From Acidobacteriota bacterium (GTDB taxonomy: Bacteria > Acidobacteriota > UBA890 > WLXD01), in NCBI GenBank assembly GCA_965248695.1, contig CBDFKD010000002.1, positions 5,024,001 to 5,088,000 on the forward strand: a stretch of 64,000 bases of DNA. Direction: 5' to 3'. The number at the start of each line of letters is the position of its first letter. The stretch's first letter is position 1. The notes beneath the pieces were generated by a model. The model had not been told where the DNA came from. It did no database searches and was given only the letters and a program-made list of their open reading frames with translations. Of this stretch, positions 10,232 to 27,607 are shown piece after piece. Position numbers and translations under genes: made by a program.

Positions 10232-10285
10232 CTACGGGTCCGTCGGCACGAGTCGCTGCAGCTCCTCGAACCAGTTGGTGATGGC
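10232..10285 (-). pseudogene. Remnant of a kinase-beta-propeller gene C-terminus (AITNWFEELQRLVPTDP*)
   Basis: Fills the whole intergenic gap; 42/49 nt identical by eye to 19934-19982. Confidence 0.75.
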
Positions 10286-11482
10286 TCAGAAGGTGTCATT
10301 CTTGAGTCTGAACGTATCGGCCAAATCCGGGCTGTGATCGTCACCCACGACACGATGGGCCACGTAGTCGCCCATCATGATGCCGTGCTTGTAGCCGTGG
10401 CCTGAGCCGCCGCCGACGATCCAGACGTTGTCCATCTCCGGGTGGCGGTCGACGATGAAGTGGTCGTCGACGCTGTTTTCCAACTGGCACACCCGCGACT
10501 CGAGCACCGGCTGATCCGCCAGAGCCGGGAAAGCATGCACGACGAATTGGCGCGCCTGCGCGATCTCCTCGGCGGTCACGATCCGCTCGTCGGTGTCCGG
10601 ATCGAACGGGATGCTGTCCAAATAGGGTCGCACCTTCCAGCCGCGCCCCTCGATGCCCGGGAAGCCGTAAGCGCCCTGCATCTCCCACGTCGGACAGTTG
10701 GGGTAGATGAACCGGTTGTCGTCCATCGGTACGCCGTACCAGAAGGTGCTGCCGCGAGGAGTCTGGAGCTTGTTCTTCATCACCGAGGGAAACACTTTCG
10801 GCAGCCACGGGCCGCACGCGAAGACGAACGTATCGGCCGATACCGGCTCGCCGGTCGACAGCTCGATCTCCAGTAGCTTGCCTCCGGCGTGCCGACCGGG
10901 CTTGGCCCTGGCGGTGACCACCGTGCCGCCGGCGCGCTCGAAAGCTCCCGCGACGACGAAACAGGCTCGCCGCGCCATGAGGACACCGGTGCTGGGTACG
11001 TGGAACCCGAATTCGAACTCCTGGTGGTTGAACTGAGGATAGCGCCGAGCCAGCTCGTCGTGAGGCACGACCTCGTTGTCGATCCCGTGTCGATCGAGCA
11101 CCTCCTTGCTAGCCCGCAGATGCTCGGACCATTGGCGCGCCAGCGTCAGCTGACCCGTACGGTAGAAGAGTGGCCGTCCACCCCACTCCCTCTGGCGCGC
11201 GTCCCACCGGTCGAACGCTTGCACGACCCATCGGGTGTAGATCTCGCGCTCGCCGTATTGGGTACGGATCTGCCGACTCTCTCCGCCGGAGGCCGCCCGT
11301 GCGTTGCCGGCGCCGTAGGCGTCGATGAGCGTGACCCGGTGTCCCATTTCTCGCAGATAAAGGGCTGTCCAGCCGCCGAACGCTCCCGCCCCGATGACCG
11401 CTACGTCCGCCGTCGAGACGGCCGCCGGTCCGGACGTCTGAACCGCGTTGGTCGCTGCCCGCGGTTGCTCGTTGCCGCCCAA
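10286..11482 (-). CDS. FAD-dependent oxidoreductase, monomeric sarcosine oxidase/SolA family; start uncertain
   Basis: VIGAGAFG, ASGGESRQIR, ACGPW, GGGSGHGYKHG. No ATG start; TTG 11482 used. Confidence 0.8.
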   Translation of the reverse strand: MGGNEQPRAATNAVQTSGPAAVSTADVAVIGAGAFGGWTALYLREMGHRVTLIDAYGAGNARAASGGESRQIRTQYGEREIYTRWVVQAFDRWDARQREWGGRPLFYRTGQLTLARQWSEHLRASKEVLDRHGIDNEVVPHDELARRYPQFNHQEFEFGFHVPSTGVLMARRACFVVAGAFERAGGTVVTARAKPGRHAGGKLLEIELSTGEPVSADTFVFACGPWLPKVFPSVMKNKLQTPRGSTFWYGVPMDDNRFIYPNCPTWEMQGAYGFPGIEGRGWKVRPYLDSIPFDPDTDERIVTAEEIAQARQFVVHAFPALADQPVLESRVCQLENSVDDHFIVDRHPEMDNVWIVGGGSGHGYKHGIMMGDYVAHRVVGDDHSPDLADTFRLKNDTF

Positions 11483-11484
11483 CG

Positions 11485-12585
11485 TCAGCGCGCCTGCACG
11501 TTCAGCGGCCGGAAAGGTACGTATCTCACCAGGCGCTGCCGGTTGATTTCCCCCGCGTAGATGTTGCCGGCGAAGTCCACGCCAAGGAACTCGAGCCCCG
11601 GCCCGATGTCTGCGTCGTGTTGGGGAACGAAGTGCAGGACCCAAGCCTGCTCCTCTTTCAGGTCGCCGATCCGGATCCCCTTCTCCCACCCGAAGTTGCT
11701 CCGCCAGGTGTCCGGAGGGCCGGTTCTTGGCGTGCCCGAAAGGCCGTCGGCGGCGTAGAGGATATCGTTGCGGTCAATGAAGAGCCCGCTCGGCTTGCCG
11801 TATTGGGTCCAGATGTAGAGGGGCTTGCCGACTGGGTCGAAGACCTGGATCCGGCTGTTGCCGCGGTCGGCGACGTAGACGCGACCGCGGGAGTCGAGCT
11901 TGACGTCGTGGGGGTCGCTGAACCGACCCGGCTCCCTGCTCTCCGAACCGACGCCACCGCCCACTTCGAGAAGGAAGGTGCCGTCACGCGAGAACTTGAC
12001 GAGCCGGTTGTTTCCGCCCCGGTGCCCATCAGTGACCCAGATGTCCCCGTTTCTGGCGATCGCGACGCCGGACGGCCCGTTGAAATGGTGCGGACCGTTT
12101 CCCCAGACCCCGGCTTCGCCGAGCCGCATCACAACCCCTCCTCGCTGGTCGAGCTTCACGACCTGATGACCCAGCCCGAGGCTCTCACCAAGCTTCGCCC
12201 GGGCATCCCCGTGTGAGCCGCCCTCGGTCACCCAGAGAAAGCCCTCGTGATCCAGGTAGAAGCCGTGAGGGAAGCCGAAGATCCCTGCGCCGAAGCTCTC
12301 CACCAGGTTGCCGTCGAGGTCGAACTTGAGGATCGGATCCAAGTCGCTCCCGGCGCACTGATTCCCGCCACACCGGTCGAGCATCCACAGGTGCTGGCCG
12401 TCGGGGTCGGGGAAGGCTCCGCTCATGATCCCCAGCGTTCTTCCTTCGGGGAGTTTCTCCCAATCGAGCGTGACGCGGTACGGATTGATCGTGGAAGTTT
12501 GGGCGTACAGCCACCCGCCCAGCGTCACTGCCAACGCGCTCGAGACGGCCGCAACCGCCGCGCCTATCCGACGGGCATGCCGCAT
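11485..12585 (-). CDS. Secreted NHL-repeat protein (peptidyl-alpha-hydroxyglycine alpha-amidating lyase-like)
   Basis: Signal peptide; FPHG, FNGPSGVA, FSDPHDV, YVADRGNSRIQVFD NHL repeats. Confidence 0.85.
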   Translation of the reverse strand: MRHARRIGAAVAAVSSALAVTLGGWLYAQTSTINPYRVTLDWEKLPEGRTLGIMSGAFPDPDGQHLWMLDRCGGNQCAGSDLDPILKFDLDGNLVESFGAGIFGFPHGFYLDHEGFLWVTEGGSHGDARAKLGESLGLGHQVVKLDQRGGVVMRLGEAGVWGNGPHHFNGPSGVAIARNGDIWVTDGHRGGNNRLVKFSRDGTFLLEVGGGVGSESREPGRFSDPHDVKLDSRGRVYVADRGNSRIQVFDPVGKPLYIWTQYGKPSGLFIDRNDILYAADGLSGTPRTGPPDTWRSNFGWEKGIRIGDLKEEQAWVLHFVPQHDADIGPGLEFLGVDFAGNIYAGEINRQRLVRYVPFRPLNVQAR

Positions 12586-12590
12586 GCGAT

Positions 12591-12620
12591 CGGGCCTGTT
12601 TTGGTGCCGGGTTCCATGGC
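12591..12620 (-). pseudogene. Remnant of a Ser/Thr kinase gene N-terminus (AMEPGTKTGP)
   Basis: Resembles the xLxPGTKLGPY start of Pkn2-type kinases; lies between a promoter-arm variant and the NHL gene start. Confidence 0.5.
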
Positions 12621-12649
12621 CTTATCAAGGAGGCATAGGTGACCGGCTG

Positions 12650-12679
12650 AGCCTAGCGATGGAGCAAGCGAGGGTCCAG
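12650..12679 (-). promoter_or_regulatory. Variant of the repeated promoter arm (CTGGAC-N18-TAGGCT)
   Basis: agcctagcgatggagca...tcca resembles agcgtagcgccggagca...tcca at 29547. Confidence 0.45.
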
Positions 12680-12690
12680 GGTTCGGTTGC

Positions 12691-13866
12691 TCAGCCGGCA
12701 TCCACGGGTCTCCAGACCTGTTCCGCGATGCGGGCAAAGTTGCCTCCCATGATCGCCAGTATTGCGCTGTCGCCATAGCCGATATCAAGTAGTCGTTCGG
12801 TGATCTGGGGGATGGCATCGGGCTGAACGACCTGAGCGAACGGATCTGGGCCCGCCGAAGCGGGGTACTGGCGGGCGGGCCAGTACTTGGGGTCTGCCGG
12901 TGCATCGTCAGTTACCGGTGCATCGTCAGTTATCTGAACCGGTACGCTGTCGAGGCCGATGCCTACATGCTCGGGGCCAACCAGCTGAACCATGTATTCG
13001 ATATGGTCAACGAGGCGACTGACGGTACCGTCCTGCGGCCCGAGATACAGACTCACACCATTTATTGCGATTACGCCGCCCGTGGCAGCGCATGCCTCGA
13101 TGAGGTCGTCGGTGATGTTGCGCTCGTGATCCTGGAGGTTGCGGGCGTTCGAATGCGAGAAGATGACCGGCGAATCGGAGGCATCCATCGCCTCGAGGGC
13201 AGTTCGGTAGCCAGTGTGTGAACAGTCGACCAGCATTCCGACCCGATTCATTTCACGAATGACTGAGCGGCCGAACAGCGTCAGGCCGGTGTCGTCGTCG
13301 TGGCAACCGCCACCTGCCAGGTTGTTGAGATTGTAGGCGATGAGCATTTGGCGCACTCCGAGCCGGTAATAGAAGTCGACCATACCGACGTCACCGTTCA
13401 GGGCGCCCATACCCTCCAGGTCGAAACTGACCGCCAACTTGTTGTCGCGCCTGGCCTTCTGCACATCCTGAAAGGTCTCGACCTGAACGAAACGGTCGCT
13501 GTGCTTGCGAATCCAGTGCCGGTATTGCGACACCGCCTGGATAGCCAGTGTCCACGGGGTGGCGTCATAGCCGATGTTTACCGAGAGGAAGTCCGCGCCG
13601 GCGGCACTCCACAGCGCCAGCCACTGGAGATCTTCGGCCTTGTTGAAGCCCCAGCCGGCGTGATCGTCCCAAACCAGGGCTGAAGCGTGCAGGGCCGCCG
13701 CACGTTCCGAGACGCCCCAAGCTTGTACTTCGTCGATCAAAGCAGCGTGCGCATCGGCTGCCGCGGGTGGCGAGTGTGACCGGGCGACAAGAGCGGAAAG
13801 CGGCGTTCCTGCCAGAAACACGGGGCCGAGGAAACTGCCCAGAAACCGACGTCTTTGGATGCTCAT
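12691..13866 (-). CDS. Tat-exported membrane dipeptidase (M19 family)
   Basis: QRRRFL Tat motif, WDDH, DLEG, VDCSH, FSHSN, HVGIGLD. Confidence 0.9.
   Translation of the reverse strand: MSIQRRRFLGSFLGPVFLAGTPLSALVARSHSPPAAADAHAALIDEVQAWGVSERAAALHASALVWDDHAGWGFNKAEDLQWLALWSAAGADFLSVNIGYDATPWTLAIQAVSQYRHWIRKHSDRFVQVETFQDVQKARRDNKLAVSFDLEGMGALNGDVGMVDFYYRLGVRQMLIAYNLNNLAGGGCHDDDTGLTLFGRSVIREMNRVGMLVDCSHTGYRTALEAMDASDSPVIFSHSNARNLQDHERNITDDLIEACAATGGVIAINGVSLYLGPQDGTVSRLVDHIEYMVQLVGPEHVGIGLDSVPVQITDDAPVTDDAPADPKYWPARQYPASAGPDPFAQVVQPDAIPQITERLLDIGYGDSAILAIMGGNFARIAEQVWRPVDAG
12897..12932. repeat. Perfect 18-bp tandem duplication inside the M19 gene
   Basis: ccggtgcatcgtcagtta x2, encoding TDDAP twice. 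Confidence 0.9.
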
Positions 13867-14187
13867 TCAGACCACTACCCCTATCAATCAACCCGACAAG
13901 CCAGGTAGTCGATATCCTGCAACCTCCGCGCCGCCCGATGGTCCGGACCAATCCGACGAGCAGACCCGAGCCAGGCTCGTTGTCGGATCAGGGTACCTGA
14001 GACCTCCTCGGCGCGCGGCAAAAGCCCCTGATTGCGTCGCAAGCGGCATGAGATACGACGCTGAAGGAAGGAGATCGGGGACGAGTGCACGGCGCCCGGG
14101 CATCAGATAGGCTCTGGAGCCTTCCGCGCTAGGCTCCCCACGCCATACTTGCGCGCCGCCGATGTCTTCCAACTCCTCCGCGCCGAG

Positions 14188-15764
14188 ATGAACCTCCGCG
14201 ACCGCGACACTAATCCGGTACAGCCGACGGGCTTGGATTACTCACGAAAGCCAATAGAGGACTACGTCGACCTGATCGATGCGGCGGTCGTCTATGAGGT
14301 GGCGACGAGGACCCCGCTCGAGCTCGCCGGTAACCTGTCGGCGCGACTCGGCAACCGGATCCTGCTGAAGCGCGAGGACCTACAGCCGATCTTCTCGTTC
14401 AAGCTCCGCGGTGCATACAACAAGATCGCATCGCTCTCGCAGCAGGCGCTGGGCGCTGGGGTCATATGCAGCTCGGCCGGTAACCACGCGCAGGGCGTGG
14501 CACTCGCCGCGCGGCGGAAAGGCACGCGGGCGGTAATCGTCATGCCGGTCACGACACCGAGCATCAAGATCGATGCCGTCAGGGGGCTGGGAGGCGAGGT
14601 GATTTTGCATGGCGACACCTACGACGACGCCTACGGCAGGGCACGGGAGCTCGAGAAGATCGACGGTCTGACGTTCTCCATCCATTCGACGATCCCGCGG
14701 TTATCGCCGGCCAGGGCACCATCGGCAAGGAGATCCTCGAGCAGGCGGACGAAGCCGTGAGCGCCGTCTTTGTTCCCATCGGCGGTGGTGGGCTCATCTC
14801 GGGAATCGCAGCCTATATCAAGGCGAAACGGCCAGAAATCCGCATGATCGGCGTCGAGCCGGAGGATTCGGCGGCGATGGGAGACTCGGTCGCCGCCGGT
14901 GAGCGCGTCACCCTGGAGCATGTCGGCAGCTTTGCCGACGGCGTCGCCGTCAAGCAGGTGGGCGAGGAGACCTTTCGACTCTGCCGGGAGCTGGTCGACG
15001 ATTTCGTCACCGTCGATACGGATCAGATCTGTGCCGCCATTCGCGACATATTCGAGGACACGCGCTCGGTCGTAGAGCCTGCCGGAGCGCTGGCGACCGC
15101 CGGCGCGAAGCAATATCTCGCCGAACACGCAGCGCGGGACGAGACGGTCGTGGTGATCAACTGCGGCGCCAACGTCAACTTCGACCGGCTAGGCCACATC
15201 GCCGAGCGCGCCGCCGTCGGTGACCAGCAGGAGATGTTGCTGGCCGTCGAGATCCCGGAGAAGCGCGGCAGCTTCAAAGCATTCTCCGAAGCCGTCGGCC
15301 GGCGCGGCGTTACCGAATTCAACTACCGCTACAGCGACCCGAAGATCGCGCACATCTTCGTCGGCATCGAACTGCGTCGTGGACCGCGGGAACGAGCGGA
15401 GCTGATCGAGACGCTGCGGGGGCTCGGGTATCCGCTCGTCGACCTGAGCGATGACGAGTTGGCGAAGCTCCACATCAGGCACATGGTCGGCGGCAGGGCA
15501 GCGAACCTCGAGAACGAACGGCTGTTCCGCTTCGAGTTTCCGGAACGTCCCGGTGCCCTACTTGACTTCCTGACCGCGATCGGCGCGAACTGGAACGTTA
15601 GCCTCTTCCACTACGGGAACCACGGCTCCGACCACGGTCGGGTCCTCGCCGGCATCCAGGTGCCCAAAGAGGACTCGGACAAACTCGAGGCACACTTCAC
15701 CGAGCTGGGCTATCCGTACTGGGAGGAGAGCGACAATCCGGCCTACGCGATGTTCCTGGCTTGA
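14188..15764 (+). pseudogene. ilvA: Biosynthetic threonine ammonia-lyase, split by a frameshift near 14677
   Basis: [18 protein letters not shown] and SAGNHAQGV in one frame; VPIGGGGL, FADGVAV and the regulatory domains in another. ttc-tccatccattcgac lacks one base of the expected F-I-H-P-F-D. May be a sequencing error. Confidence 0.88.
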
Positions 15765-15848
15765 TGGCAAACTCGTGCTTTCACATCGGGGGCGACGTCA
15801 GGTCTCGGCGCGCGCGTGTGTCGAAAACCAGCCAAGGAAGATCGAACG

Positions 15849-17459
15849 ATGAGAAGTCTCGCTGCCGTCACCCTTGCGGGTGTTTTGTTGTCGGCCTGCG
15901 CCACCAGCCGGGGTGCCGACAATCGATCCGTGGTCGCGGCGCCGGGCACTAGCGGCACGCCCGAGTTTCTCCAGCCGATCGATCTGATTCGGTCCGCTCT
16001 CGGACCCTTCTCCTGGACGATCAGCACCAGCAAGCCACGAGCCCAGGAATACTTCGACCAGGGGATGCAGCTCCGGTATGCCTACAATGTGACGGAGGCA
16101 GCTCGCTCGATGGCCGAGGCGAGGCGCCTGGATCCCCAGTGCGCGATGTGCTTCTGGGGCGAGGCCTTCGCCCTGGGCTCGTTTCTCAACGGCGGCATGA
16201 GCGTCGATCGATCACTGCGGGCGCACGCGGCGATCGAGGAAGCAGTCGCTCTTTCAAGCAGCGCGACAGCCGTCGAGCGCGACCTGATTCTGGCGGCGCG
16301 AGATCGCTACCCCGCGAACTACGACCCTGAACAACGGCGCCCAGTCGACGAATCGTTCGCCGAGGAAATGGCGAAGGTGTACGAGAAGTACCCGGACCAT
16401 CAGGAGGTAGCCGTCGTATATGCGGTGGCTCTGTTCCTGCTCGAGGAGAGACTCGGTCACCGAGATGTCGAGGACCCCGATCTGATTCGACTTCACGGAG
16501 TGCTGACCGGCGTCCTGGAGGACAACATCGAGCATCCCGGCGCATGCCACCTCTACGTACACGCAACGGAGTCGAGCCAGCACCCGGAGTTGGCGCTCGA
16601 GTGTGCCGAACATCTCGGTCGGGCGGTGAAGGTCGCCAGCCACGTCCAGCACATGCCCTCGCATACCTGGAACGAGGTCGGTCTGTGGGGGCGGTCGGTC
16701 CAGGCCAACACTGCGGCCTGGCACTCGGACCAGAAAGCGGCGAAGAAACTCGGCTTCTCCTACGGGAGGACACACAACCTGCACATGCTGCTGTTCGCCG
16801 CCTCGATGGACGGACAGGGCGCGATCGCGACGCAGGCGGGCAAGGATTTCGCGAAAGTCGGTGGCAACACGATGCATCAGGTGTTGACCCTTCTGCGCTT
16901 CGGTCGTTTCGACGAGATCCTCCAAGTCAAGAAGCGCCCCTCGACTGAGATCGCTGGCGGCTTCTGGGAGTTCGCCCAAGGCTATGCCGAGCTACGGACC
17001 GGCGACGCAGCGGCTGCGGGCGAGCATCTGGCGCGGGTTCAGGACCTGGCGGAGCATTCCGAGGCAATGCTCCGGTTCCACGAAGGCAAACAGCTGATGG
17101 GCCTCGCAGCGGCGATCCTCGAAGGTGAGATCCTCCGCGCCCAGGGCGACCTCCAAGCCGCGATCGACGCGTTCGAGCGCGCTGCCGCCTTCGACGACCA
17201 GCAGCGCTACGACGAGCCCGAGCCGATCCCGTTCGCAGCCCGCCACTGGCTTGGCGCGGCACTCCTCGAGGCCGGGCGCCCGGCCGAAGCGGAGGACGTG
17301 TACCGAACCGAGCTCGCGGACCATCCGCACAACGTGTGGTCGCTCCACGGTCTGAGAGTCGCATTGGAGGCCCAAGGCAAGGCCGACCCAGAGGTGGAGC
17401 GAGACTTCGCCCAGAGCACTGCCAGAAGTGACACCTGGATCACTGCCTCCAGGTTCTAG
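15849..17459 (+). CDS. TPR-repeat lipoprotein
   Basis: LSAC lipobox, AQEYFDQG, DPQCAMCFWGEA, HPGACHLYVH, HMPSH, YDEP. Confidence 0.85.
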   Translation: MRSLAAVTLAGVLLSACATSRGADNRSVVAAPGTSGTPEFLQPIDLIRSALGPFSWTISTSKPRAQEYFDQGMQLRYAYNVTEAARSMAEARRLDPQCAMCFWGEAFALGSFLNGGMSVDRSLRAHAAIEEAVALSSSATAVERDLILAARDRYPANYDPEQRRPVDESFAEEMAKVYEKYPDHQEVAVVYAVALFLLEERLGHRDVEDPDLIRLHGVLTGVLEDNIEHPGACHLYVHATESSQHPELALECAEHLGRAVKVASHVQHMPSHTWNEVGLWGRSVQANTAAWHSDQKAAKKLGFSYGRTHNLHMLLFAASMDGQGAIATQAGKDFAKVGGNTMHQVLTLLRFGRFDEILQVKKRPSTEIAGGFWEFAQGYAELRTGDAAAAGEHLARVQDLAEHSEAMLRFHEGKQLMGLAAAILEGEILRAQGDLQAAIDAFERAAAFDDQQRYDEPEPIPFAARHWLGAALLEAGRPAEAEDVYRTELADHPHNVWSLHGLRVALEAQGKADPEVERDFAQSTARSDTWITASRF

Positions 17460-17504
17460 CGCGAACCAGCGGACCTCAACTCTTCCCCAAACCCGCGGAC
17501 CGGA

Positions 17505-17921
17505 TCAGATCCAACGCTTGCTTTCGGTCCGCTTCGAATACCAGATCATGAACGCTGCCACTACCGACGACATTAGAGTCCCGACCCAGACCTCGATTGG
17601 AACGTCGGCTGCGCCGAGGAAGGGGAACATCTGCACAACGACGCCAAGTAGCGACGCGATGAACAGGTAGTACGCAGCCGACTTCCTGAGCAGAAGCAGG
17701 AGGCAGCCAAGCGCGCCGCCGAAGACGCCGAGCGCAAAAGCTCCGGTAGCCCATACGGGCCGGCTTTCGATGATCGCCCGGTACGACTCGGACGTGGAAG
17801 CGAGCACGTCCGCATCCATCTGCGAGAAGAAGTTCATGATGCCCAACACATTCCAGATCAGCGCCACAGCGCCGATCGCCCAGAAACTCCACGGAACACT
17901 TCCAGCCGACTTGTCGCTCAT
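17505..17921 (-). CDS. Small membrane protein (about 4 TM helices)
   Basis: PWSFWAIGAVALIWN, PVWATGAFALGVFGGALGCLLLLLRK; RBS before ATG 17921. Confidence 0.8.
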   Translation of the reverse strand: MSDKSAGSVPWSFWAIGAVALIWNVLGIMNFFSQMDADVLASTSESYRAIIESRPVWATGAFALGVFGGALGCLLLLLRKSAAYYLFIASLLGVVVQMFPFLGAADVPIEVWVGTLMSSVVAAFMIWYSKRTESKRWI

Positions 17922-17972
17922 CGCATCCCCCGAGTCCCTGCTGTCTATCGCCCGGTAACGGGCGAGCGCCGC

Positions 17973-18004
17973 AAGCGTATCGTCAGCGCCGCCGAGTTCC
18001 AACG
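17973..18004 (-). promoter_or_regulatory. 32-bp repeated arm, sigma70-like TTGGAA-N17-TACGCT
   Basis: aagcgtatcgtcagcgccgccgagttccaacg; 30/32 identical to 19769-19800. Confidence 0.75.
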
Positions 18005-18168
18005 AGTCATTGCCAACTCACAAGCGCTCACGTATTTTGCCGCAGTCGCTCGGCTAGTGCCCGGCTGCTGCCTCGATCTGGCAGCGCGATGGCGTGGCGG
18101 CAGATCGTGGGCTGGTACCTACACGAGGACATGGAGCGGCTTCGACCTGTTGGCGCCATGGCCAGCGC

Positions 18169-18855
18169 CTAATCGGATGCGATCAAGCTCATCGCGAGGC
18201 CGCCGTTCGCGTCTGCCCGCACCTGCACCTCGCGCTGGAGGATGCGGTCACCCGCAACTCCCCACGCTGTTAGCAGGTACGACTGCTTCGGGATGTCCTC
18301 GACGCGAAAGCTCCCCTGATCATTAGCGATCGCCGCATATGGGTGCGAGACCACGAGGATGAGCGCCATCATCCCCGGGTGCATGTCGCAGCTGACGCTA
18401 TAGGGGCCGTTCTGCTCGAACCGGTGCTCGATCTCGTCGTCTTGCCTCAGGTCAACGTTGATGACCACGGCCTGTGTCTGCGCCTGTGTCACGCGCACGT
18501 TGTGCTCGGTGTCGTCGCCGTTGCCGAACCGCACCTGCTGACCTCTCGCGGCGATCGCCATCCGCGGAGCGAAGGTGCGGCCGAACTGCTCGATCGCGAT
18601 CGCCGTTGCCGGTGCCTCGCGTTCCGGTGCAACCGACGCTGCCTCTGCGAGAGGCTCCAACGACACGACCGCCGGGCCGAGCCCATCGGGGAGCGTCGCG
18701 AGCAGCGTTGCCGCCGCCGCGTCGGGATCAGCCGAGCTGTCGGGCTCGGGAGCGGCCGATCGCGAGCCGCCGGGAGCACACGACACCAGCACGAGCGTGA
18801 TGACCGTCGACCCCACCATCGGTCGCCGTTCCCGGGGGGCACGTCGCGAGTTCAT
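18169..18855 (-). CDS. Cupredoxin-like lipoprotein with a carboxypeptidase-regulatory-like C-terminus
   Basis: LVSC lipobox, FAPR, NGDDTEHNV and CDMHPGM copper-ligand pattern. Confidence 0.75.
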   Translation of the reverse strand: MNSRRAPRERRPMVGSTVITLVLVSCAPGGSRSAAPEPDSSADPDAAAATLLATLPDGLGPAVVSLEPLAEAASVAPEREAPATAIAIEQFGRTFAPRMAIAARGQQVRFGNGDDTEHNVRVTQAQTQAVVINVDLRQDDEIEHRFEQNGPYSVSCDMHPGMMALILVVSHPYAAIANDQGSFRVEDIPKQSYLLTAWGVAGDRILQREVQVRADANGGLAMSLIASD

Positions 18856-19043: not shown

Positions 19044-19628
19044 TCAGCGAGCCGGTCGCAACATCGGCACGAACGGTGGTGACGTTCCCACTTGGACCTC
19101 GCCGAGCACCTCGAAGCCGTGGCGCTGATAGAGGGAGACGTTTCTCGGGTTCGTCGATTCCAGATATGCCGGCGTCTGATCATGGTCGCATTGCTGCGCG
19201 GCATACTTCATGAGCGCGCCCCCGATCCCCTTTCCCCGATACGCCGGGTCAACCCCGATGAGCGGCAGATACCAGTGCGGCTCGGCAGGGTGGTATCCAG
19301 CCAGCTGCTCGAACACTGCGTAGAGGTCGGTGCGGACCGACTCCGAGACGGTACTCTCAATGACCTCGCCCAGAGCTTCCTCATCAGGGTGCACATCGGG
19401 CGGCAGCCAGAGGGCGGTGCCGGCGCATTCCCCGGTGCAGTGGGCACTACCGTGGGCGAAGGAGCTGCCGGCAAACGCACGCGCGAACCGAGGCATGTTC
19501 GTCAGATACTGATGCGGATCCGGATAGCACCATCTCGCCACCGGATCGGCGACGAACGCCAGTACGATCGCATCGATTGCCGGACTCTCGTCGGCCTGAG
19601 TCGTCGTTCTGATCTCAGGGATCTCCAT
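19044..19628 (-). CDS. GNAT family N-acetyltransferase
   Basis: PHWYLPLIGVDPAYRGKGIG, AYLESTNPRNVSLYQRHGF; GGAGG RBS. Confidence 0.9.
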   Translation of the reverse strand: MEIPEIRTTTQADESPAIDAIVLAFVADPVARWCYPDPHQYLTNMPRFARAFAGSSFAHGSAHCTGECAGTALWLPPDVHPDEEALGEVIESTVSESVRTDLYAVFEQLAGYHPAEPHWYLPLIGVDPAYRGKGIGGALMKYAAQQCDHDQTPAYLESTNPRNVSLYQRHGFEVLGEVQVGTSPPFVPMLRPAR

Positions 19629-19768
19629 GGCTTCCTCCGGAGGCTGATCTGGTTCCCGTGTCCGCGATCGCGCGGATCGCGCTCCAGCTTGTCTAGTGGT
19701 CTCTCGCACTGACTGGCGCGAACAACGCAGCCGTGAAAGACCTACGAAGCAGGACGATGGGCGCCCAG

Positions 19769-19992
19769 AAGCGTATCGTCAGCGCCGGCGAGATCCAACG
19801 CCAGGTGTAGAGAGGCTATCGGGCGGCAGTTGAATTGAGGTAGTAGGCCCAATCACCCCGAGTTGGAACCGGATCTAGGAAGAGCTCCGAGGGCTGGATC
19901 GGCTACTTGCCTGATTCGGAGGGCTGAGCGCGTTACGGGGCCGTTGGCACGAGCCGCTTCACCTCCTCGAACCGGGTGGTGACGAGCGTCAC
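19769..19992. repeat. Complete cassette junction: promoter arm (19769-19800), tRNA-Glu-like core (19842-19852), recombinase-like tail (19840-19914, +), kinase C-terminal remnant (19933-19992, -)
   Basis: TTGGAT-N17-TACGCT on the minus strand; agtaggcccaa core; plus-strand translation VVGPITPSWNRI*EELRGLDRLLA*; minus-strand translation VTLVTTRFEEVKRLVPTAP*. Confidence 0.75.
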
Positions 19993-20202
19993 GCAATGGC
20001 TACTGGCCCGCATCTGCGCGCGGCTTTCGCACTCCTTCAGTTCCTAATACTCGAAGGACTTGCCGAGGAGTCGCGGGCCTGACTTCTACTGTCCAGGCAT
20101 AGACGGGCCGAGCCACACGAACCGGTACTCCCACGAGCAGCGAGAGCAGCTACGTATCTCCGACGACGGTGTGCTGGGTCCGCTTGAACCGATTCGCTTG
20201 TC

Positions 20203-22203
20203 TTACCGTATCTCGCTCGTACTGGAGGCTCTTCGCCGGGCGCGGCTTCGAACAAGCAGCTGCTCCCGCACCGCTCGATGTGCCTCGTCGATAGCCGAGT
20301 CGGTGTGTGTCGAGGCAGCGGCATCGGAGTTGGCGATGGAAATCCGACCGAATCGCCGGCTCCCGACTACGCACGGCCGATCGTCGGGTGTGAACAGCGC
20401 CCACTCGATGGGATCGTCCAGGGTGTTGTAGCTGTATGCATAGCCGTGCGGCCAGCGATTCACCGTGATCGCTTCGATGTCGCGAGCCGGGTCGAAGCCC
20501 CCACCCTCCAGCATTCGACCGAGCTGGTCGCGGATGTTGCGCTCGAATGTCTCGAAGCTCGTGGCCAACAGATTCTCTCGCCCGATGCGGTGCTGCTGCT
20601 TCTTCGGGTGTCCAGGAGCGCAGGGCGTTCTGGACATGTGCAGAATCATCGGGTCCTCGGGTGACCTGGAGGGTTGGTACTCACCGAACTGCACGGAGCG
20701 GCCAAGGCTGACCCCGCTGTGGTACATCCCCGGCGCGGTCACCCGTGAGACTCCGAGGTTCTTGAAGGCCTTCCAATCTCGGGTAAGGACGTTGGTGGAG
20801 ACGAGCGGCATCTTGACACCATACTTGAGCGCCACCTTCTGCTCGTCGGACATCTCTGGGCACAGGTGTGGGATGACCCCGTTCCAGCAGCCCATCACAC
20901 AGTGACGCGCCCGTACCTTCTCGGCCTTGCCAGCGCGTAGATAGGTAATCTCGACTTCGCGGGCCACATCGGGATCGCCCAGGTGCCGGACGGAGACGCC
21001 CATGCTGTTGAGGCGAATCCTGGCGTCGGAACCCTCGCGGTCTAGGCGGTCGTACCTGAGTCGCGACGTCATCGAGTCGTCCAGCGAGGTGCCGGGAAGC
21101 GCGTCGGGAATCATGGCGCGAACCAGCAACCGTGCCAGCGTCGCGTTGCCGTCTGGAAAGTGGATGTCCGGTCGATCGTCCCACTCGTTCTCGCGACCGT
21201 GTTGCCCGCCGCCGATGTGGGCAAGGGGGCCCACCAGGGGAAGGGTCTCGAGGTTCATCCCCTGGAAGCCGGGATAGCCCTGGGCCCATGCGTAGAGTGC
21301 CGGATGGGCGTCGATGCCAACGCAGAAGCTACCCTTCGGGCGGTCATCGAAGAACGGGATCACATCCGAGTGAACCTTGGCCAGATCGAGCAGAAAGTCC
21401 CGGTAGCTGATGCGTGCCAGGCGCTCCTTCTTGTCCGCATCCGACAGTCCGGGCATGGTGTCCGGGTTCGCATCGTCGTCGTAGAGCCGCGCGATGTCCC
21501 TCTGCGCCTCCGGAGACATCGGGGTCTTTGCGAGCCACTCGGCCCATGCACCCGATTGCCCGCCGCGTCCCATCACCAGCCGATCCTCGCCGAACACCTC
21601 CTTGCTGAAGAACGTGGCGTTGCCCAGGCCCAGCGATCCGTAGAACCTCCTACCCGCGGCGCTGGTGGCATAGGCGCTGTCGATGTCGATGCCGACCGCA
21701 GCGAGAAGCGTCCTGCAGACGGCGCTGTAGTGGCCCACAGACTCGAGGTACGACGTACCGCCGGGCAGCATCAGCGTACGGCCTCGATAGGTCATCTCGT
21801 TGCGCTTGGCATGGCCGCCAAAGTCGTCGTGATTGTCGAGGACAAGGACACGCGCACCGCGGCCAGCCGAGGTCAGGAAGAAATAGGCTGCCGAAAGCCC
21901 GCTCAGCCCCCCACCGACCACCACGCAATCGTAGCGCTCACCGGTATCGGCGGCATCGGTCCAAGAGTTGCCGTCGCGAAGCGCATGGCCGGCCTCGAAG
22001 GAACCGGGGTGGCTGCCGCGCATTCCGGTCAGGGCCGGGGGGTAGTAGTCCTGCGCGAGTGGCGCATAGGGCTTGCCCTCGCGTGCCGACGACCAGCCCG
22101 GTGCGATGAGCGCCCCCCCGATCGCAACCCCCACGCCGTTAACGAAGTCGCGCCGGGTGATATCACGGTGCATCCCTAGATCACGATCCTCACTTGTGGG
22201 CAT
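20203..22203 (-). CDS. Tat-exported spermidine dehydrogenase-like FAD oxidoreductase (second paralog)
   Basis: ITRRDF, YPPALTGMRGSH, LDNHDDFGGHAKRNE, ITVNRWPHGYA. Confidence 0.87.
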   Translation of the reverse strand: MPTSEDRDLGMHRDITRRDFVNGVGVAIGGALIAPGWSSAREGKPYAPLAQDYYPPALTGMRGSHPGSFEAGHALRDGNSWTDAADTGERYDCVVVGGGLSGLSAAYFFLTSAGRGARVLVLDNHDDFGGHAKRNEMTYRGRTLMLPGGTSYLESVGHYSAVCRTLLAAVGIDIDSAYATSAAGRRFYGSLGLGNATFFSKEVFGEDRLVMGRGGQSGAWAEWLAKTPMSPEAQRDIARLYDDDANPDTMPGLSDADKKERLARISYRDFLLDLAKVHSDVIPFFDDRPKGSFCVGIDAHPALYAWAQGYPGFQGMNLETLPLVGPLAHIGGGQHGRENEWDDRPDIHFPDGNATLARLLVRAMIPDALPGTSLDDSMTSRLRYDRLDREGSDARIRLNSMGVSVRHLGDPDVAREVEITYLRAGKAEKVRARHCVMGCWNGVIPHLCPEMSDEQKVALKYGVKMPLVSTNVLTRDWKAFKNLGVSRVTAPGMYHSGVSLGRSVQFGEYQPSRSPEDPMILHMSRTPCAPGHPKKQQHRIGRENLLATSFETFERNIRDQLGRMLEGGGFDPARDIEAITVNRWPHGYAYSYNTLDDPIEWALFTPDDRPCVVGSRRFGRISIANSDAAASTHTDSAIDEAHRAVREQLLVRSRARRRASSTSEIR

Positions 22204-22314
22204 AGCCTAGCCGCTCCAGGTTCTCAAACGCGGGAAGCGTGCGAAACGTCGACTCGTTACCAGGCTCGACCGAAGTGCAAATCGCATCCAGACTCTGACG
22301 TCGGCGAGCAAGGG

Positions 22315-22420
22315 AAGCGTATCGTCAGAGCTTGCGAGATCCAACGGAGGGAGTAGGAAGAGGCTGCGGGCAACGGCGAAACGGAGGTGGTAGCCCCAAC
22401 GGCCAGGATGTTGAACCACA
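22315..22420. repeat. Promoter arm plus tRNA-Glu 3'-end duplicate (att-like junction)
   Basis: 22315-22346 is 29/32 identical to 19769-19800; caacggcgaaa is shared with 27666; gtagccccaacgg at 22390-22402 is identical to 27685-27697. Confidence 0.85.
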
Positions 22421-22439
22421 TATCCAGTACGTAGCGCGC

Positions 22440-22505
22440 CCCACCCGCTTGTCGAGGATCTCGGTCAGGATGTCGCGATAATCGATCGTGATCTCTAGAT
22501 CCCTG
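22440..22505 (-). pseudogene. C-terminal fragment resembling DUF1501-family proteins
   Basis: Translates RDLEITIDYRDILTEILDKRVG; no upstream gene body. Confidence 0.45.
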
Positions 22506-22608
22506 CACCGTCCGCATGAAAGGCTGTACCGGCCAGCGAGGCGCGTCATCTCGACCCGTCGCGGCCGTCAAGCGGAGCGGCCTGCCTGTCCATTGTAGGC
22601 TGTGTCTG

Positions 22609-23037
22609 ATGCAGATCCACCGGGAGACGCTGGAGCGCGAGACCGCGCCCGATACCGACATTCATGACCTCACCGACGAGGTGCGGGCCGTCATCGAGCG
22701 CTCGCGTGTGAAGCAAGGCCAAGTGCTCGTCTTCACGCCAGGCTCGACCGCCGGCGTCACCGTCATCGAGTACGAGAGCGGCGCCGTGGCCGATCTAAGG
22801 CGGGCGATCGACCGGCTGGCGCCCACCGGCGAGCCCTACGATCACGACGCCCGCTGGGGCGACGGCAACGGTTACTCGCACGTGCGCGCCGCGCTGCTCG
22901 GCCCCTCGATCACCGCGCCGATCGTCGACGGTAGGGCGGTTCTAGGCACCTGGCAGCAGATAATTCTGTGCGATTTTGACAACCGGCCGCGAACCCGGAA
23001 AATCGTCGTGCAGGTGATGGGCGTCGTGGTTCCGTAG
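22609..23037 (+). CDS. yjbQ: YjbQ/UPF0047 family protein (secondary thiamine-phosphate synthase)
   Basis: PGSTAG, YDHD...NGYSHVRAALLGPS, LGTWQQI, DFDNRPR. Confidence 0.92.
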   Translation: MQIHRETLERETAPDTDIHDLTDEVRAVIERSRVKQGQVLVFTPGSTAGVTVIEYESGAVADLRRAIDRLAPTGEPYDHDARWGDGNGYSHVRAALLGPSITAPIVDGRAVLGTWQQIILCDFDNRPRTRKIVVQVMGVVVP

Positions 23038-23245
23038 CCTTGCCGGCCGCTTAGTCAACCCCCTCTCTCACCACCCGCCCGCAAAGCTAAAGCTAACGAA
23101 CGAGCTGGGCGGGCGGAGGTAGTCGATTCAGCAGGGTAGGTGTAATTGCGCGGCAGTCCGTTGTTCGGGATGACGCCGGATGGCATCACCTAAGCCGCTG
23201 TGTTCCATGCCTTGTCATTGGTTGCCCGGGTAATCTCCAGGAATT

Positions 23246-23641
23246 TCAGCTTTCGGCATCGTCCGGGAGAGCGTATCCACCCGATTCGTCGTTAACTTCG
23301 TCGCCAACCAGCGGCGGGTTGAAAATAGCAATGGCGCGCACTTCGGTATCCAGGTTGTAGCGGTGACGCTCATGTTTGTCGAAAGCATAGAAGACTCCCG
23401 GCTCCAGTCTATAAACGTCCCCGGTCTCGATGATCTCGACAGTGCCGGTTCCCTCGAGAACGTAAACGGCCTCGATGTGGTTCTTGTGCTCGACCTCGAG
23501 GTCGATGCCTGCCGAGCCGACGGCCTCGGTTACGGTGAAGCCCAAGTTGTCGGACGCGACCGCCAGGCGGGCGCTCACGAAACCATCCGCTTCGACGAAA
23601 TTCGGCGTCCCCTTCAATTGTGCAAATGTACGAAGAATCAT
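23246..23641 (-). CDS. ectC: Ectoine synthase-like cupin (solitary EctC)
   Basis: MILRT...SARL...DNLGFTV, HKNHIEAVY, PGVFYAFDKHERH, FNPPLVGDEVNDESGGY. Confidence 0.8.
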   Translation of the reverse strand: MILRTFAQLKGTPNFVEADGFVSARLAVASDNLGFTVTEAVGSAGIDLEVEHKNHIEAVYVLEGTGTVEIIETGDVYRLEPGVFYAFDKHERHRYNLDTEVRAIAIFNPPLVGDEVNDESGGYALPDDAES

Positions 23642-23726
23642 CCTGAGGTTCCCTTTGCTGGTTTGATATTCGTAGCTGGCACTATCGCTGGCGAAGTCTT
23701 CCGGCAGCACGTTGATCGAGACATCA

Positions 23727-23842
23727 CGATCGAGAGTGGAACTCCGGGGGCTGCATCGGCTGCTTGCATGATTCGGTGAGGCCGGCTGAGCGCGCTACTT
23801 GTCTGTCGGCGCGAGCCGGTTCAGCTCGTCGAAGAAGTTAGT
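23727..23842. repeat. Recombinase-like tail plus kinase C-terminal remnant (partial junction)
   Basis: 23739-23776 is 33/38 identical to 19882-19919 (ELRGLHRLLA*); minus strand 23795-23842 reads TNFFDELNRLAPTDK*. Confidence 0.8.
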
Positions 23843-24965
23843 TCGTGAGAACCAATCCTCGGCCGACGAGCTTTATGGGATCGGCTCCGGGCTTCGGAAC
23901 GAACTTGCTCAACCATCCGCCGTCCCAGCTGGCGACATAGACGTTGCCGTCCTGGTCCACGTCCATCTGGTGTGGACGCCCGAGGCCACCAGGAAAGCCG
24001 CCCCGCGTCCCGCCGAACGCACCCCAGTGGTACTGGAGGACCCCGTCCAGGTTGTACCTGAGGATCCGGTTCACTGCCGCAGAAATCACCCAGACCGCGT
24101 CATTCTCGTCGATGAAGATTCCGACGGGATCGGTGACGTCGGGCCACTCCTCGATGAACTCGCCGTCTTCCGTAAAGACTTGGATGCGGTTATTGGTCCG
24201 GTCGCCGACGTAGATGCGGTGATCGCGGTCCACGGCAACGCCGTGGATGAGGTCGAACTGTCCGGGGCCGCTCCCGACCGAGCCGAACTCCGACACGAGC
24301 TCGCCGGCCGCGTTGTACCTGGCGATACGACCGTTCTGGTAACCGTCCCCGAGCAGAAAGTCGCCGTCCGGGAGGAAGGTCATCACCGAGGCCTGGCCGA
24401 AGTCGAGCGGTCCCGGGTTCTTGTTCGCCCGTGCCTTCTCCCCGCTCTGGCGCGGGTTGGGGTCGAGGAGCCGCATCACGATCTGTTTGCCGTCGTTGGT
24501 GAACTTGATGACCTGCTCGTGGATGTCCCTGGTTCCTCCGCCGCGCTCGACGAGCCAGATGTGGCGCTCCGGGTCGTAGGGGCTGATGTAGACCTGGTGG
24601 GGAGTGTTGAGCATGGTGTCCCACTGGGTCCAACGCTCGACGATGTCCCCGTTCCCATCGACGACCACCATGTAGTTGGAGCTGTTCGGCCGCTCTTCGC
24701 CTTCGGCGTTCCGGTCGCCCCACACTGCAACGATAATCCGGTTCGGATTGTCAGCCGCCACACCAGAGACCTGACCCCAGGTCCACTCCTCGTCGTGGTC
24801 TGGCGCCGGCTTCCACCAGCCTGCCACCGGATCGTATCCTCCGGTACGGTCGTCCCCGCCCTTGATGACCGCCTCCGGTGCGGCCTGGTCCTCACCAGCG
24901 CAGGCTGGGAGTAGCGCCAGCCCAACGGCGAGGAAGAGGGCCACGTCCATGCGCTTTAGTTTCAT
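23838..24965 (-). CDS. NHL-repeat lipoprotein (amidating lyase-like beta-propeller)
   Basis: LPAC lipobox, PHQV, GDGYQNGRI, FDLIHGVAVD, YVGDRTNNRIQVF. Confidence 0.85.
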   Translation of the reverse strand: MKLKRMDVALFLAVGLALLPACAGEDQAAPEAVIKGGDDRTGGYDPVAGWWKPAPDHDEEWTWGQVSGVAADNPNRIIVAVWGDRNAEGEERPNSSNYMVVVDGNGDIVERWTQWDTMLNTPHQVYISPYDPERHIWLVERGGGTRDIHEQVIKFTNDGKQIVMRLLDPNPRQSGEKARANKNPGPLDFGQASVMTFLPDGDFLLGDGYQNGRIARYNAAGELVSEFGSVGSGPGQFDLIHGVAVDRDHRIYVGDRTNNRIQVFTEDGEFIEEWPDVTDPVGIFIDENDAVWVISAAVNRILRYNLDGVLQYHWGAFGGTRGGFPGGLGRPHQMDVDQDGNVYVASWDGGWLSKFVPKPGADPIKLVGRGLVLTN

Positions 24966-25003
24966 CGTCAAATCCACTCCCGAAAAGGCTTTCATAGACG
25001 CCG

Positions 25004-25990
25004 TGGAGTTGACCCGCTTCCGTGGACACCTTATGGCTAACGCCAAAGGAGTCTGCGATGCGAAGAACACGACCGCCTTATCCGCCGGAGTTTCGCCGGC
25101 AGATCGTCGAGCTAGCGCGGGCAGGACGCAGCGTGCAGGAGCTCGCCGAGGAGTTCGAGCCCTCGTACTGGACGATCCGTACATGGATCAAGCAGGCGGA
25201 TCGAGATGACGGGCTTAGCGCGGCTGGCCTGAGTAGCCAGGACAAGGAAGAACTACGGCGGCTACGCCGGGAAAACCGCCAGTTGAAGACGGAGCGGGAG
25301 ATCCTGGCAAAAGCCGCGGCCTGGTTCGCTCGGGAGACCGGCGCAGTACCCAAGAAGTCTTCGGGTTCGTGAGAGCTCACCAGGCCTGCTATCCGATCGC
25401 CACGATGTGCCGAGTGCTGGAGGTCTCCACCAGCGGCTACTACGCGTGGCGACAACGCCCTAGCAGTATGCGAGCACGACAGGATGCACAGCTGCGTGAG
25501 CAGATCGAGACGATCCATCGACTTAGCCGTGCGACCTATGGCGTGCCTCGGGTACACGCGGAACTGGCCGCCGACGGCGTTCGGGTGGGGCGCAAACGCG
25601 TGGCACGGCTGATGAGCCAGGCGGGGCTGGAGGGTGTCAGCCGCCGCCGTCGGCTGCGCACGACGCGCCGCGGTACTGACGCGCAGCCGGTGCCCGATCT
25701 GGTGAAACGTGACTTCGCGGTCGGTGCACCCGATCGCCTGTGGGTTGCCGACATCACGTACGTCTCTACGTGGTCGGGGTTCTTGTACCTGGCGGTGGTG
25801 ATGGATGCCTTCAGCCGGCGGGTGGTGGGCTGGTCGATGGCCAACCACCTGCGTACCGAACTGGTGCTTGAGGCGCTCAACATGGCGATCTGGCAACGCC
25901 GACCTGAGAGCGTGATCCACCACTCTGATCAGGGCACGCAATACACCTCGATCGCCTTCGGCCACCGCTGCAAGCAGCTCGGTGTACGTC
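25004..25990 (+). mobile_element. IS3-family element, truncated on the right by a second IS
   Basis: TG-starting left IR (tggagttgacccgcttccgtggacacc), orfA and orfB; orfB stops after HSDQGTQY...GVR. Confidence 0.88.
25058..25372 (+). CDS. IS3 transposase OrfA
   Basis: YPPEFRRQIVEL HTH; ELRRLRRENRQLKTEREILAKAAAWF zipper. Confidence 0.9.
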   Translation: MRRTRPPYPPEFRRQIVELARAGRSVQELAEEFEPSYWTIRTWIKQADRDDGLSAAGLSSQDKEELRRLRRENRQLKTEREILAKAAAWFARETGAVPKKSSGS

Positions 25991-25998
25991 TGACCTGA
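25369..25998 (+). pseudogene. IS3 transposase OrfB, truncated before the catalytic Glu
   Basis: YGVPRV, LWVADITY and HSDQG present; the DNAxxE segment is missing. Confidence 0.85.
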
Positions 25999-27250
25999 CC
26001 CCCGAAAACGGATCCGGATGTAATCTCACGATCTGGGTCAAGAACGGGAGGTCAGAATGCCGAGTAAGAGGCACAGCGCCGAGCAGATCGTACGCAAGCT
26101 CCGGGAGGCTGAGGTGGAGCTGGCTCGAGGGGCGACGGTCAAGGATGCCTGCCGCAAGCTAGCAATCACCGAGCACACCTACTACCGGTGGCGGCGAGAG
26201 TACGGCGGACTGAAGCTCAACCAGGCCAGAAAGCTCAAGCAACTGGAGAAGGAGAATGCCCGGCTCAAGAGGCTGGTGGCGGAAAAGGAACTCGACCTGT
26301 CGATCCTGAAGGAAGTGGCGGAGGGAAACTTCTGAGCCCAGCTCGGCGGCGAGAGGCGGTGGCACATGTACGGGGGCGGCTGGGCGTCTCGGAGAGGCGG
26401 GCGTGTCGGGTACTGAAACAACCACGCACGACACACCGGTACGTGCCAAGAGAGCCGCAACAGGAGCAGATTTTGACGGAGCGGATCGTGGATTTAGCCC
26501 GACAGTACGGGCGCTACGGATATCGGAGGGTGACAGCGTTGCTGCGCATGGAGGGCTGGTCCGTGAACCACAAACGAGTGCAGCGTATCTGGCGGCGCGA
26601 AGGGCTGAAAGTACCGAGAAAACAGCCCAAACGAGCACGGCTGTGGCTGAGCGATGGCTCCTGCATCCGGCTGCGCCCACAGCACCGGGATCATGTCTGG
26701 GCGTATGACTTCCTGCACCACCGGACGCACGACGGTCGGGCTATGAGGCTGCTGACGATCGTCGATGAGTACACACGAGAAAGCCTGGCGATCCATGTAG
26801 CACGGAAGCTCAACTCTGAGGACGTGCTGGAGCAGCTCGGGAGGTTGTTCGTACACCGGGGCATACCTGAGCACATCCGGTCGGATAACGGACCAGAGTT
26901 CACCGCCGAGGCGGTTCGCGACTGGCTGGGCCGGTTGGGCGTGGGGACGCTGTTCATCGAGCCGGGCTCGCCGTGGGAGAACGGTTACGTGGAGAGCTTC
27001 AACGGCAAGCTACGCGACGAGCTGCTGGATGGAGAGATCTTCTACACGCTCAAGGAGGCAAAGGTTCTGATCGAGAGATGGCGTCAGCACTACAACCGCA
27101 TGCGACCGCACAGCTCGCTGAGCTATCGGCCGCCCGCACCCGAAGCGACGTTGTTGAAGCCGGCTGCGCTCCGCTTCGCCGGCCTCAACAACCTCTTGTC
27201 AGCACCGAGTTACTGAGATAAGACATGGTACTAACCGCGGGGTCAGGTCA
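25991..27250 (+). mobile_element. Complete IS3-family element (IS407-like group), 1260 bp
   Basis: Terminal IRs TGACCTGACCCC / GGGGTCAGGTCA; GGGAAAC frameshift window near 26323; no target duplication (cgtc | aggg). Confidence 0.92.
26057..27216 (+). CDS. IS3 transposase OrfAB (-1 programmed frameshift)
   Basis: OrfA 26057-26335; OrfB with YGYRR, WAYDF, IRSDNGPEF, PGSPWENGYVESFNGKLRDE. Confidence 0.92.
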
Positions 27251-27519
27251 AGGGCGGGACGGGAGACGCGGACACGCGCACACTTCGGGAGCGACAGGGC
27301 TAGCCGGGACATTCGTTCTCTCTTGGCTTTGTGCCAGGGCTAGCCCACATCCTTGGCGGACGACCGAGGTCACCTGGTTAGCAGCTCTAGGGGCGCTTGA
27401 CCAAGAAAGCTTCGGTGCGGCGGATAGCCGCAAAGTAGCCGATCCTCAGAACACCCGTCGGAGGGCGCATAGTGTAGTTGATTGCCGGGCGGGGGATGAG
27501 CGAGCGAAGGGCGGTTTCG

Positions 27520-27581
27520 GCATACCCAGTGGGGTCGAGGATCTTGTCGCAGCTGTGTCGAGTTCCGGGTTCGATGGCACT
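27520..27581 (-). pseudogene. Decayed Ser/Thr kinase gene N-terminus (AIEPGTRHSCDKILDPTG)
   Basis: Matches the register of xxEPGTRLGxYxILxPLG; lies just downstream of the arm copy next to tRNA-Glu. Confidence 0.5.
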
Positions 27582-27607
27582 GCCGGGCGGAGGTGGAAAT
27601 GCGCCCG

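Follow-up and report, generated by a model that had tools for sequence, protein, structure and literature searches.

Terminal relics of a multi-copy kinase–PD40 gene family around unrelated genes in an Acidobacteriota genome

How do the two ends of one gene come to stand around other genes? The question is raised by a 64,000-nucleotide (nt) stretch of the genome of an Acidobacteriota bacterium (GenBank assembly GCA_965248695.1, contig CBDFKD010000002.1, positions 5,024,001 to 5,088,000), hereafter the window, in which short minus-strand pieces translate into the first and last residues of a protein kinase with PD40 repeats, with genes for other proteins between them. The original prediction, made from the sequence alone, was that the promoter, start and end of a kinase gene had repeatedly been kept while its body was replaced by foreign genes, through recurrent gene capture or content exchange. 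We examined the window within its 5.9-Mb genome (65% G+C), in which C2 denotes the contig in genome coordinates, and against 20 relatives in all, among them the congeners G001, G002, G003 and G004 and a member of a different family, G012. We propose, with a probability of about 0.6, that the pieces are relics of a large, fast-turnover kinase–PD40 sensor family, in which illegitimate replacement was followed by homologous recombination at the conserved termini.

All six peptides named in the original prediction indeed translate as written on the minus strand, and their assignment to the termini of a Pkinase–PD40 family was upheld by intact paralogs and by database relatives. Intact members in the genome are proteins of ~900 residues with both domains (Pfam). 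Five intact open reading frames (ORFs), at L001:1001-3676, L002:9279-12017, L014:1283-4498, L019:1769-4501 and, in G003, L028:12419-15274, contain a PF00069 kinase domain with PD40 repeats (PF07676) downstream of it. The intact genes of the analysed genome have the N-terminus MEPGTKLGPYEI and the C-terminal motif NWFEELKRLVPT; their ORFs start with MEPGTKLGPYEITEQLGAGGMG, preceded by a conserved box and a 5' untranslated region (5'UTR), and end in LNWFEELKRLVPTDP before the stop codon. Among the 120 best database relatives (8000 candidates were scored in the search, 5274 of them at E<=1e-10), 92 carry NWFEELKRLVPT at 2-4 residues from the C-terminus, and the named ones are Acidobacteria protein kinases. 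The N-terminus M.PGT[KR]LGPYEI, followed by the G-loop, is found in four intact paralogs of the genome, and a stricter N-terminal pattern in only 16 of the 120 relatives, so that this start is characteristic of a subfamily and not of the family at large. The first 700 nt of the gene are 80-91% identical among paralogs. As had been predicted, the intact kinase paralogs are flanked by the same upstream box and the same tail as the window pieces. A Pfam scan of the window ORFs did not find the kinase domain in the window units, which are relics of the Pkinase–PD40 family and not members of it.

We then delimited these relics with two nucleotide profiles: one built from copies of the gene end (tail) and searched with nhmmer over the 5.9-Mb genome (threshold E<0.01), the other covering the upstream box, the 5'UTR and the first 25 codons (head). 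The three window tails, supposed from their peptides to be the same end, proved to be one DNA repeat (E 1e-12 to 1e-15), belonging to a family of ~50 nt (D3). Tail 1 (10232-10285; like all heads and tails of the window, on the minus strand) comprises the last 17 codons and stop of a Pkinase–PD40 gene (E 9.5e-16 over 10232-10281), tail 2 (19933-19992) is diverged (E 6.2e-13 over 19931-19982), and tail 3 (23795-23842; E 3.3e-12 over 23793-23842) has ~65 nt of 3' flank in common with tail 2. Two of the three predicted heads were significant. Head 1 (12592-12679; E 1.3e-10) consists of the box, which is promoter-like and a putative promoter, the 5'UTR and the first 9 kinase codons; head 2 (27562-27637; E 5.9e-5), just downstream of tRNA-Glu, consists of the box, the 5'UTR and ~6 codons, with ATG changed to ATC, and only AIEPGT of the peptide originally proposed there is kinase-like. 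The third, recognised from a weak VEPG, carries no weight: at 22297-22352 (E 0.33) only the upstream box of unit 2 matches, at 84% to repeat D1, and the coding part is unrecognisable.

The replacement of a kinase body could be followed at unit 1, which lies between head 1 and tail 1. In G003, the tail before the DUF1989 gene is the end of an intact Pkinase–PD40 ORF with a full head (L028:12419-15274), and in G001 DUF1989 is preceded by a full-length kinase gene (model positions 9-2789) whose frame is broken ~100 nt upstream of the tail. The analysed genome retains the tail–DUF1989 join (91.8% identity, with blocks 93-95% identical between G003 and the window) in the order head, NHL gene, truncated oxidase, tail, DUF1989, and the DUF1989 ATG follows directly on the stop of tail 1. 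NHL-repeat gene 1 (11485-12585, also given as 11494-12591, minus strand) is single-copy in the genome. It shows 91-92% DNA identity to genes in G004 and G012; the match at 91% to a genome of another family suggests a recent horizontal transfer, and neither head nor tail lies beside the relatives in G004 and G012. The flavin adenine dinucleotide (FAD) oxidase block (Pfam DAO; 10286-11506, minus strand), one of three copies in the genome, is truncated at its 5' end and lacks the start codon and twin-arginine signal that are both present in its own paralog. At the first join, kinase codon 9 is fused 8 nt before the NHL ATG, so that NHL gene 1 has lost its own ribosome-binding site and has kinase codons instead; at the second, NHL codon 363 meets oxidase codon ~18, with the consequent loss of the oxidase start and twin-arginine signal; at the third, tail 1 starts 1-3 nt past the TGA that closes the oxidase ORF (10286-11689), immediately behind it and in the same frame. 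The matches listed from the 20 relatives included none of these joins. An S9 peptidase gene lies upstream of the kinase in G003 and after DUF1989 in the analysed genome. By this comparison, unit 1 is a true replacement of the kinase body via three illegitimate joins.

The case is weaker for units 2 and 3. The cargo of unit 2 is an SpdH-like nicotinamide adenine dinucleotide (NAD)/FAD oxidoreductase gene (20203-22203, minus strand), with tail 2 ~210 nt downstream of its ORF, and G003 has the same block of tRNA copy, box and SpdH-like gene, followed by other DNA, without tail 2. In unit 3, tail 3 begins on the stop codon of NHL-repeat gene 2 (ORF 23838-25184, minus strand; homology to congeners over 23839-24998), with AACT common at the join. 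G003 has NHL gene 2 with the same stop and without tail 3, and a kinase fragment (codons ~9-60) upstream of it. Since these G003 blocks lack tails 2 and 3, an origin of head and tail from one gene is unsupported in either unit. The natural end of NHL gene 2, LVLTN and stop, is identical in G003, which also ruled out that tail 3 is the frameshifted C-terminus of NHL gene 2 itself.

Next, the relics were counted over the whole genome. The tail profile found 31 tails. A protein profile covering the last 331 positions, applied in three frames to the 1200 nt upstream of each tail, recognised at least 117 residues of the C-terminal domain at 8 of them, no more than its last 13-38 residues at 11 and nothing at 12; upstream of the resulting 23 orphan tails it gave no PD40 in any frame. 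Three orphans of the first scan (L019, L002 and L006) were recognised as full-length genes with frame breaks. Heads including the box are truncated in 16 of 31 cases, and a full-length scan gave 13 heads of <=150 nt and 5 of 150-900 nt. Short heads thus prevail although the first 700 nt are so well conserved, indicating an uneven distribution of breakpoints over the gene. The ends of truncated heads range from a few bases past the box to codon ~12-24, and in most of them the ribosome-binding site and start of another gene follow 5-45 nt beyond. Orphan tails likewise start at various points (5' limit at model positions 2-22), several of them 0-30 nt past the stop of an unrelated gene (oxidase, NHL, amidohydrolase or Calx-beta), and one amidohydrolase fragment is fused in frame to its tail. 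No common motif was seen at the breakpoints of truncated heads and orphan tails genome-wide. An internally deleted kinase copy was also found at C2:3032335-3032721 (minus strand), with head model positions 66-147 fused to 2397-2703.

The window and its left flank hold five truncated heads and five orphan tails in 35 kb. A further truncated head, which the original prediction had not noticed, lies at 29471-29583 (model positions 41-151; E 2.8e-6), and a copy of the upstream box (repeat D1) stands alone before a GNAT gene at 19768-19810. Two weak tail matches left of the window were set aside, one at 5020311 as probably a chance match inside a conserved gene, the other, at 5019019, as a decayed relic that is also present in G003 and lies where synteny breaks off. 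The same kinds of relics occur in four other genomes of the genus. Just left of the window, at genome position 5022566, a head–cargo join is identical in G003, so that such fusions can be old and stable, and many breakpoints between the window and G003 adjoin heads or tails. Exact runs of at least 25 nt are shared with another copy by 20 of the 31 tails, and of at least 40 nt by 8; one tail is identical over 54-55 nt at two loci with unrelated flanks on both sides.

Exchange of contents, as had been predicted, was supported by a recurring SpdH-like module. A 2.4-kb block is duplicated in the genome (L002 2124-4501 and L018 2066-4501, 95% identical) and ends at the stop of the tail; it consists of a kinase relic from the G-loop to DDLKH, an inverted SpdH-like gene and the tail. 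Six copies with 84-95% identity are present in four genomes (two in the analysed genome, one each in G002 and G004, two in G003), and their 9-10 kb contexts have no other block of at least 250 nt in common. The head/cargo join is common to five of the six, and hence arose once, and five of six end at the stop of the tail. To the left of the G-loop, the G004 copy has the whole N-terminus of one kinase subfamily from the Met, whereas the copies G003_L059 and L002 are chimeric, with an N-terminus of the MEPGTK subfamily switched at the G-loop. In the copy G003_L060, which may be the native site of the SpdH-like gene, both head and tail are missing, and the neighbours are a tRNA and housekeeping genes. 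None of 30 ORFs flanking the module copies matched a transposase or integrase family. The homology between contexts ends at kinase sequence, and such a pattern would result if a crossover or gap repair took place in the conserved G-loop and tail. The SpdH-like family itself has many paralog loci in the genome (67 matched stretches) and many more in the congeners.

These observations can be combined in the following scheme. First, the interior of a kinase gene would be replaced by other genes or pieces of genes through non-homologous joins, as at unit 1 and presumably elsewhere, so that one side would keep only the upstream box with the 5'UTR and a few codons, and the opposite side the last 13-38 codons. 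Second, to judge from the module and the block boundaries, two stretches would act as portable homology, namely the first ~700 nt, which contain the G-loop, and the tail of 50 nt, since these termini are nearly identical among dozens of paralogs; RecA-type recombination or double-strand gap repair could then copy or move the contents from head to tail and reshuffle neighbouring blocks. Third, some heads may now drive the newcomer gene, so that short relics would persist, and a relic squeezed between functional elements would be lost only by a deletion lying wholly inside it. No dedicated recombinase or site would be involved.

Several points weigh against this scheme. The homology offered by a tail is only ~50 nt, and the three window tails share exact runs of just 16-22 nt with other copies. 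Head and tail pairs around cargo do recur elsewhere, as had been expected, but an orphan tail follows within 6 kb on the same strand after only 4 of the 16 truncated heads; the other 12, and most orphan tails, are unpaired. Exchange is documented by one module only, whose six contexts could also come from repeated loss of flanks, and the head relic of G003_L059 lacks the promoter part, so that there was no intact landing pad. A sigma-70 consensus scan does not flag the upstream box, and we thus infer its promoter function from position alone. At least two shells have inverted cargo (L004 and the SpdH module); promoter capture therefore cannot explain those heads, and a kept promoter had to be given up as the general reason for them. 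Finally, the relics are conspicuous only because the ends of the family are conserved; the SpdH-like family, taken as a control, left few isolated fragments, but its ends are less conserved, which makes it a poor control.

This last point leads to a serious rival, namely pure decay with ascertainment bias: random insertions and deletions would kill kinase genes, their last bits would survive beside functional neighbours and be noticed only for their conserved sequence, and the termini would drive no exchange at all. The variable, motif-free breakpoints and the 12 unpaired heads suit decay well. At another locus (tail-y), 390 nt of kinase remain in G003 and ~55 nt in G002 and G004, a difference in relic length among genomes that fits what progressive erosion would give. 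By a reading of their peptides, orphan tails show changes at family-invariant residues and one lost stop, as under relaxed constraint. Moreover, between tail 1 and its ortholog in G003 the letters differ at 6 of 51 sites, about as in the flank (8%), so that tail 1 has not been homogenised. Against decay alone stand the SpdH module in six unrelated contexts with homology ending at kinase sequence and chimeric N-termini, the tail identical over 54-55 nt at two loci with unrelated flanks, and tails that mark the edges of duplicated blocks. We therefore consider decay alone possible but rather doubtful. A bolder extension of replacement followed by recombination, which we put forward only tentatively, is that the kinase ends form a natural integrase-free cassette system: whatever DNA came to lie between a head, which can supply a promoter, and the 50-nt tail could be copied by RecA-type gap repair into any of dozens of paralogous loci, in the same genome or in another strain, and the kinase family would thereby also serve as landing pads through which genes are gained.

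We also considered a dedicated integron- or island-like system, in which the tail would be the attachment site of a recombinase acting in trans and single-gene cassettes would accumulate behind kinases. Single-gene units that each end in the same ~50-nt element speak for it, as do arrays in G004 of kinase-tail, gene, tail, gene, tail. One of these (L046, G004 C13:43000-47500) consists of a kinase-tail, a small membrane-protein gene, a tail, a lipocalin-like gene on the opposite strand and a tail, the tails lying 640-760 nt apart. In the window, a copy of the 3' end and trailer of tRNA-Glu (22368-22402, minus strand; repeat D20) borders a 5.3-kb insert adjoining tRNA-Glu (27685-27759), as in an island; 22368-22402 and 27663-27697 form a direct repeat, 86% identical. 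This repeat continues through the kinase upstream box, which fits a homologous rather than a site-specific insertion. The tRNA core, which the original prediction had counted among the kinase flanks, is limited to the tRNA-Glu locus and its one copy and is absent at other heads. Between 22.4 and 27.7 kb no integrase was found among the ORFs, which encode NHL, ectoine-synthase-like, UPF0047 and IS3 transposase proteins.

The gene-capture machinery that such a system would need was not found either. The 19 loci fetched from the analysed genome were scanned against Pfam with greedy ORF sets, used instead of a filter on third-codon-position G+C content (GC3) that was too crude; among the ORFs around these loci and four module contexts only insertion sequence (IS) transposases and no integrase were seen, with no genome-wide IntI search made. 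In addition, the 5' limit of the tail varies, the tails fold no better than shuffled sequences (z -1.0 to +1.0, 15 copies), no attC-type cores were seen by eye, and the junctions cut into cargo genes. A dedicated system is thus improbable.

Other tRNA-like pieces and IS elements were recorded near the relics. In G003 (L033, C22:43545-43664), one hybrid tRNA-like gene, apparently fused from tRNA-Lys (5' part) and tRNA-Glu (3' part), stands directly before the box–SpdH block. At L016 3230-3330 (C2 ~4678320-4678420), a tRNA-like 3' end (T-arm, acceptor and CCA) stands before a kinase G-loop fragment and a 2OG-Fe oxygenase gene, and the corresponding position in G002 is taken by another tRNA-like piece. 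Two IS3-family elements (25003-27250, plus strand), with many copies in G002, G004 and G012, lie between head 2 and NHL gene 2. One of them (25991-27250; 367-residue transposase, with identical Pfam scores) adjoins tails at 4 of the 19 loci (L003, L011, L013 and L016), and its relatives number dozens of copies in G002 and G012. At L016, a 255-nt tail-bearing piece is absent in G002 and G004, where the IS end adjoins directly, a difference that may be due to a deletion or to an insertion, and some contigs of the Logan assemblies have a tail fused directly to an IS3-family end.

Could the tail be kept for a function of its own? It might encode a peptide tag that stop-codon readthrough or a frameshift brings into the product, or serve the downstream gene as an RNA element or as a site for protein binding. 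Tail 1 stands in frame after a TGA, the amidohydrolase fragment is fused in frame to its tail, and in three genomes the stop of tail 1 abuts the DUF1989 start codon. Nevertheless, other junctions are in different frames, with an in-frame one expected by chance in one of three; orphans have the changed residues and lost stop mentioned above; and the G004 tails adjoin genes on the opposite strand. A role as terminator or RNA element was ruled out by fold z-scores near 0 and by a terminator scan that was blank at the tails. Retention for function is, on these grounds, very unlikely.

An assembly artefact, that is, mis-joins at repeated 50-100-nt sequences of a size that confuses assemblers, in a genome where split genes do occur, can be dismissed, since the independently assembled Logan contigs from four runs of one sample (probably the source sample, hence a check on mis-joins and not independent biology) span every window junction with 0 differences and no indels, and the same kinds of relics recur in the other genomes of the genus. 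Two such split genes were noted: an ilvA-like threonine dehydratase gene (14149-15764, plus strand), which falls into two overlapping frames near 14757 with no indel in the Logan contigs, so that the break is real or common to both assemblies of the same reads, and, split in a like manner, a beta-lactamase gene in L011 (5285-6533).

Expanded paralog families abound in large soil-type Acidobacteriota genomes, in which the gain and shuffling of genes are poorly understood. If replacement followed by recombination at the kinase ends is true, these ends, routinely used as anchors and promoter donors, would explain local hot spots of gene-order change and would let genes be gained without any mobile-element enzyme; annotators, too, would be alerted to the gene relics behind many short "intergenic" repeats. 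If only decay is at work, the relics would still be a clear, countable record of rapid sensor-kinase gene death.

The nearest described idea that was found is promoter reuse by putative mobile promoters, in which highly similar upstream regions stand before unrelated genes (Nijveen, Matus-Garcia, van Passel 2012, PMC3575422). Similarly, a homologous upstream region precedes non-homologous genes at the 16 truncated kinase heads, and one head–cargo join is kept between two species-level genomes. Unlike putative mobile promoters, the kinase heads retain the first codons of their source gene, often with a matching 3' relic, and one locus is traceable to replacement of a gene body; promoter activity is putative here. 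The tRNA-Glu copy that bounds the 5.3-kb insert recalls tRNA islands, from which it differs by the missing integrase in the insert and by the repeat that runs through the kinase box, and it is a local feature only.

Integron cassettes are small, mostly single-gene units, each ending in a repeated element of ~50-60 nt and sometimes forming arrays. The single-gene units with kinase tails, and their arrays in G004, resemble them; unlike attC sites, however, which are imperfect palindromes that fold and recombine at a fixed point, the tails have no folded structure and variable boundaries, the ORFs scanned around the loci include no IntI-type integrase (no genome-wide search), and the repeat is the coding end of the kinase gene. 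Bacterial pseudogenes under deletional bias shrink to short remnants between functional neighbours, and the kinase remnants look alike in this respect, whereas an excess of very short terminal relics, and their use as block boundaries, sets them apart. In capsule-locus switching, and in the silent pilin cassettes of Neisseria with their conserved 3' repeat, unlike interiors are exchanged via crossovers in conserved flanks, and the SpdH module fits such crossovers. Here, in contrast, a single gene with dozens of paralogous copies provides both flanks from its ends, so that the same cargo can land at many loci in one genome, and the cargo need not be related to kinases. Exchange of unlike DNA between conserved flanks is a familiar process; the unusual element is that start and end of one multi-copy gene serve as the flanks.

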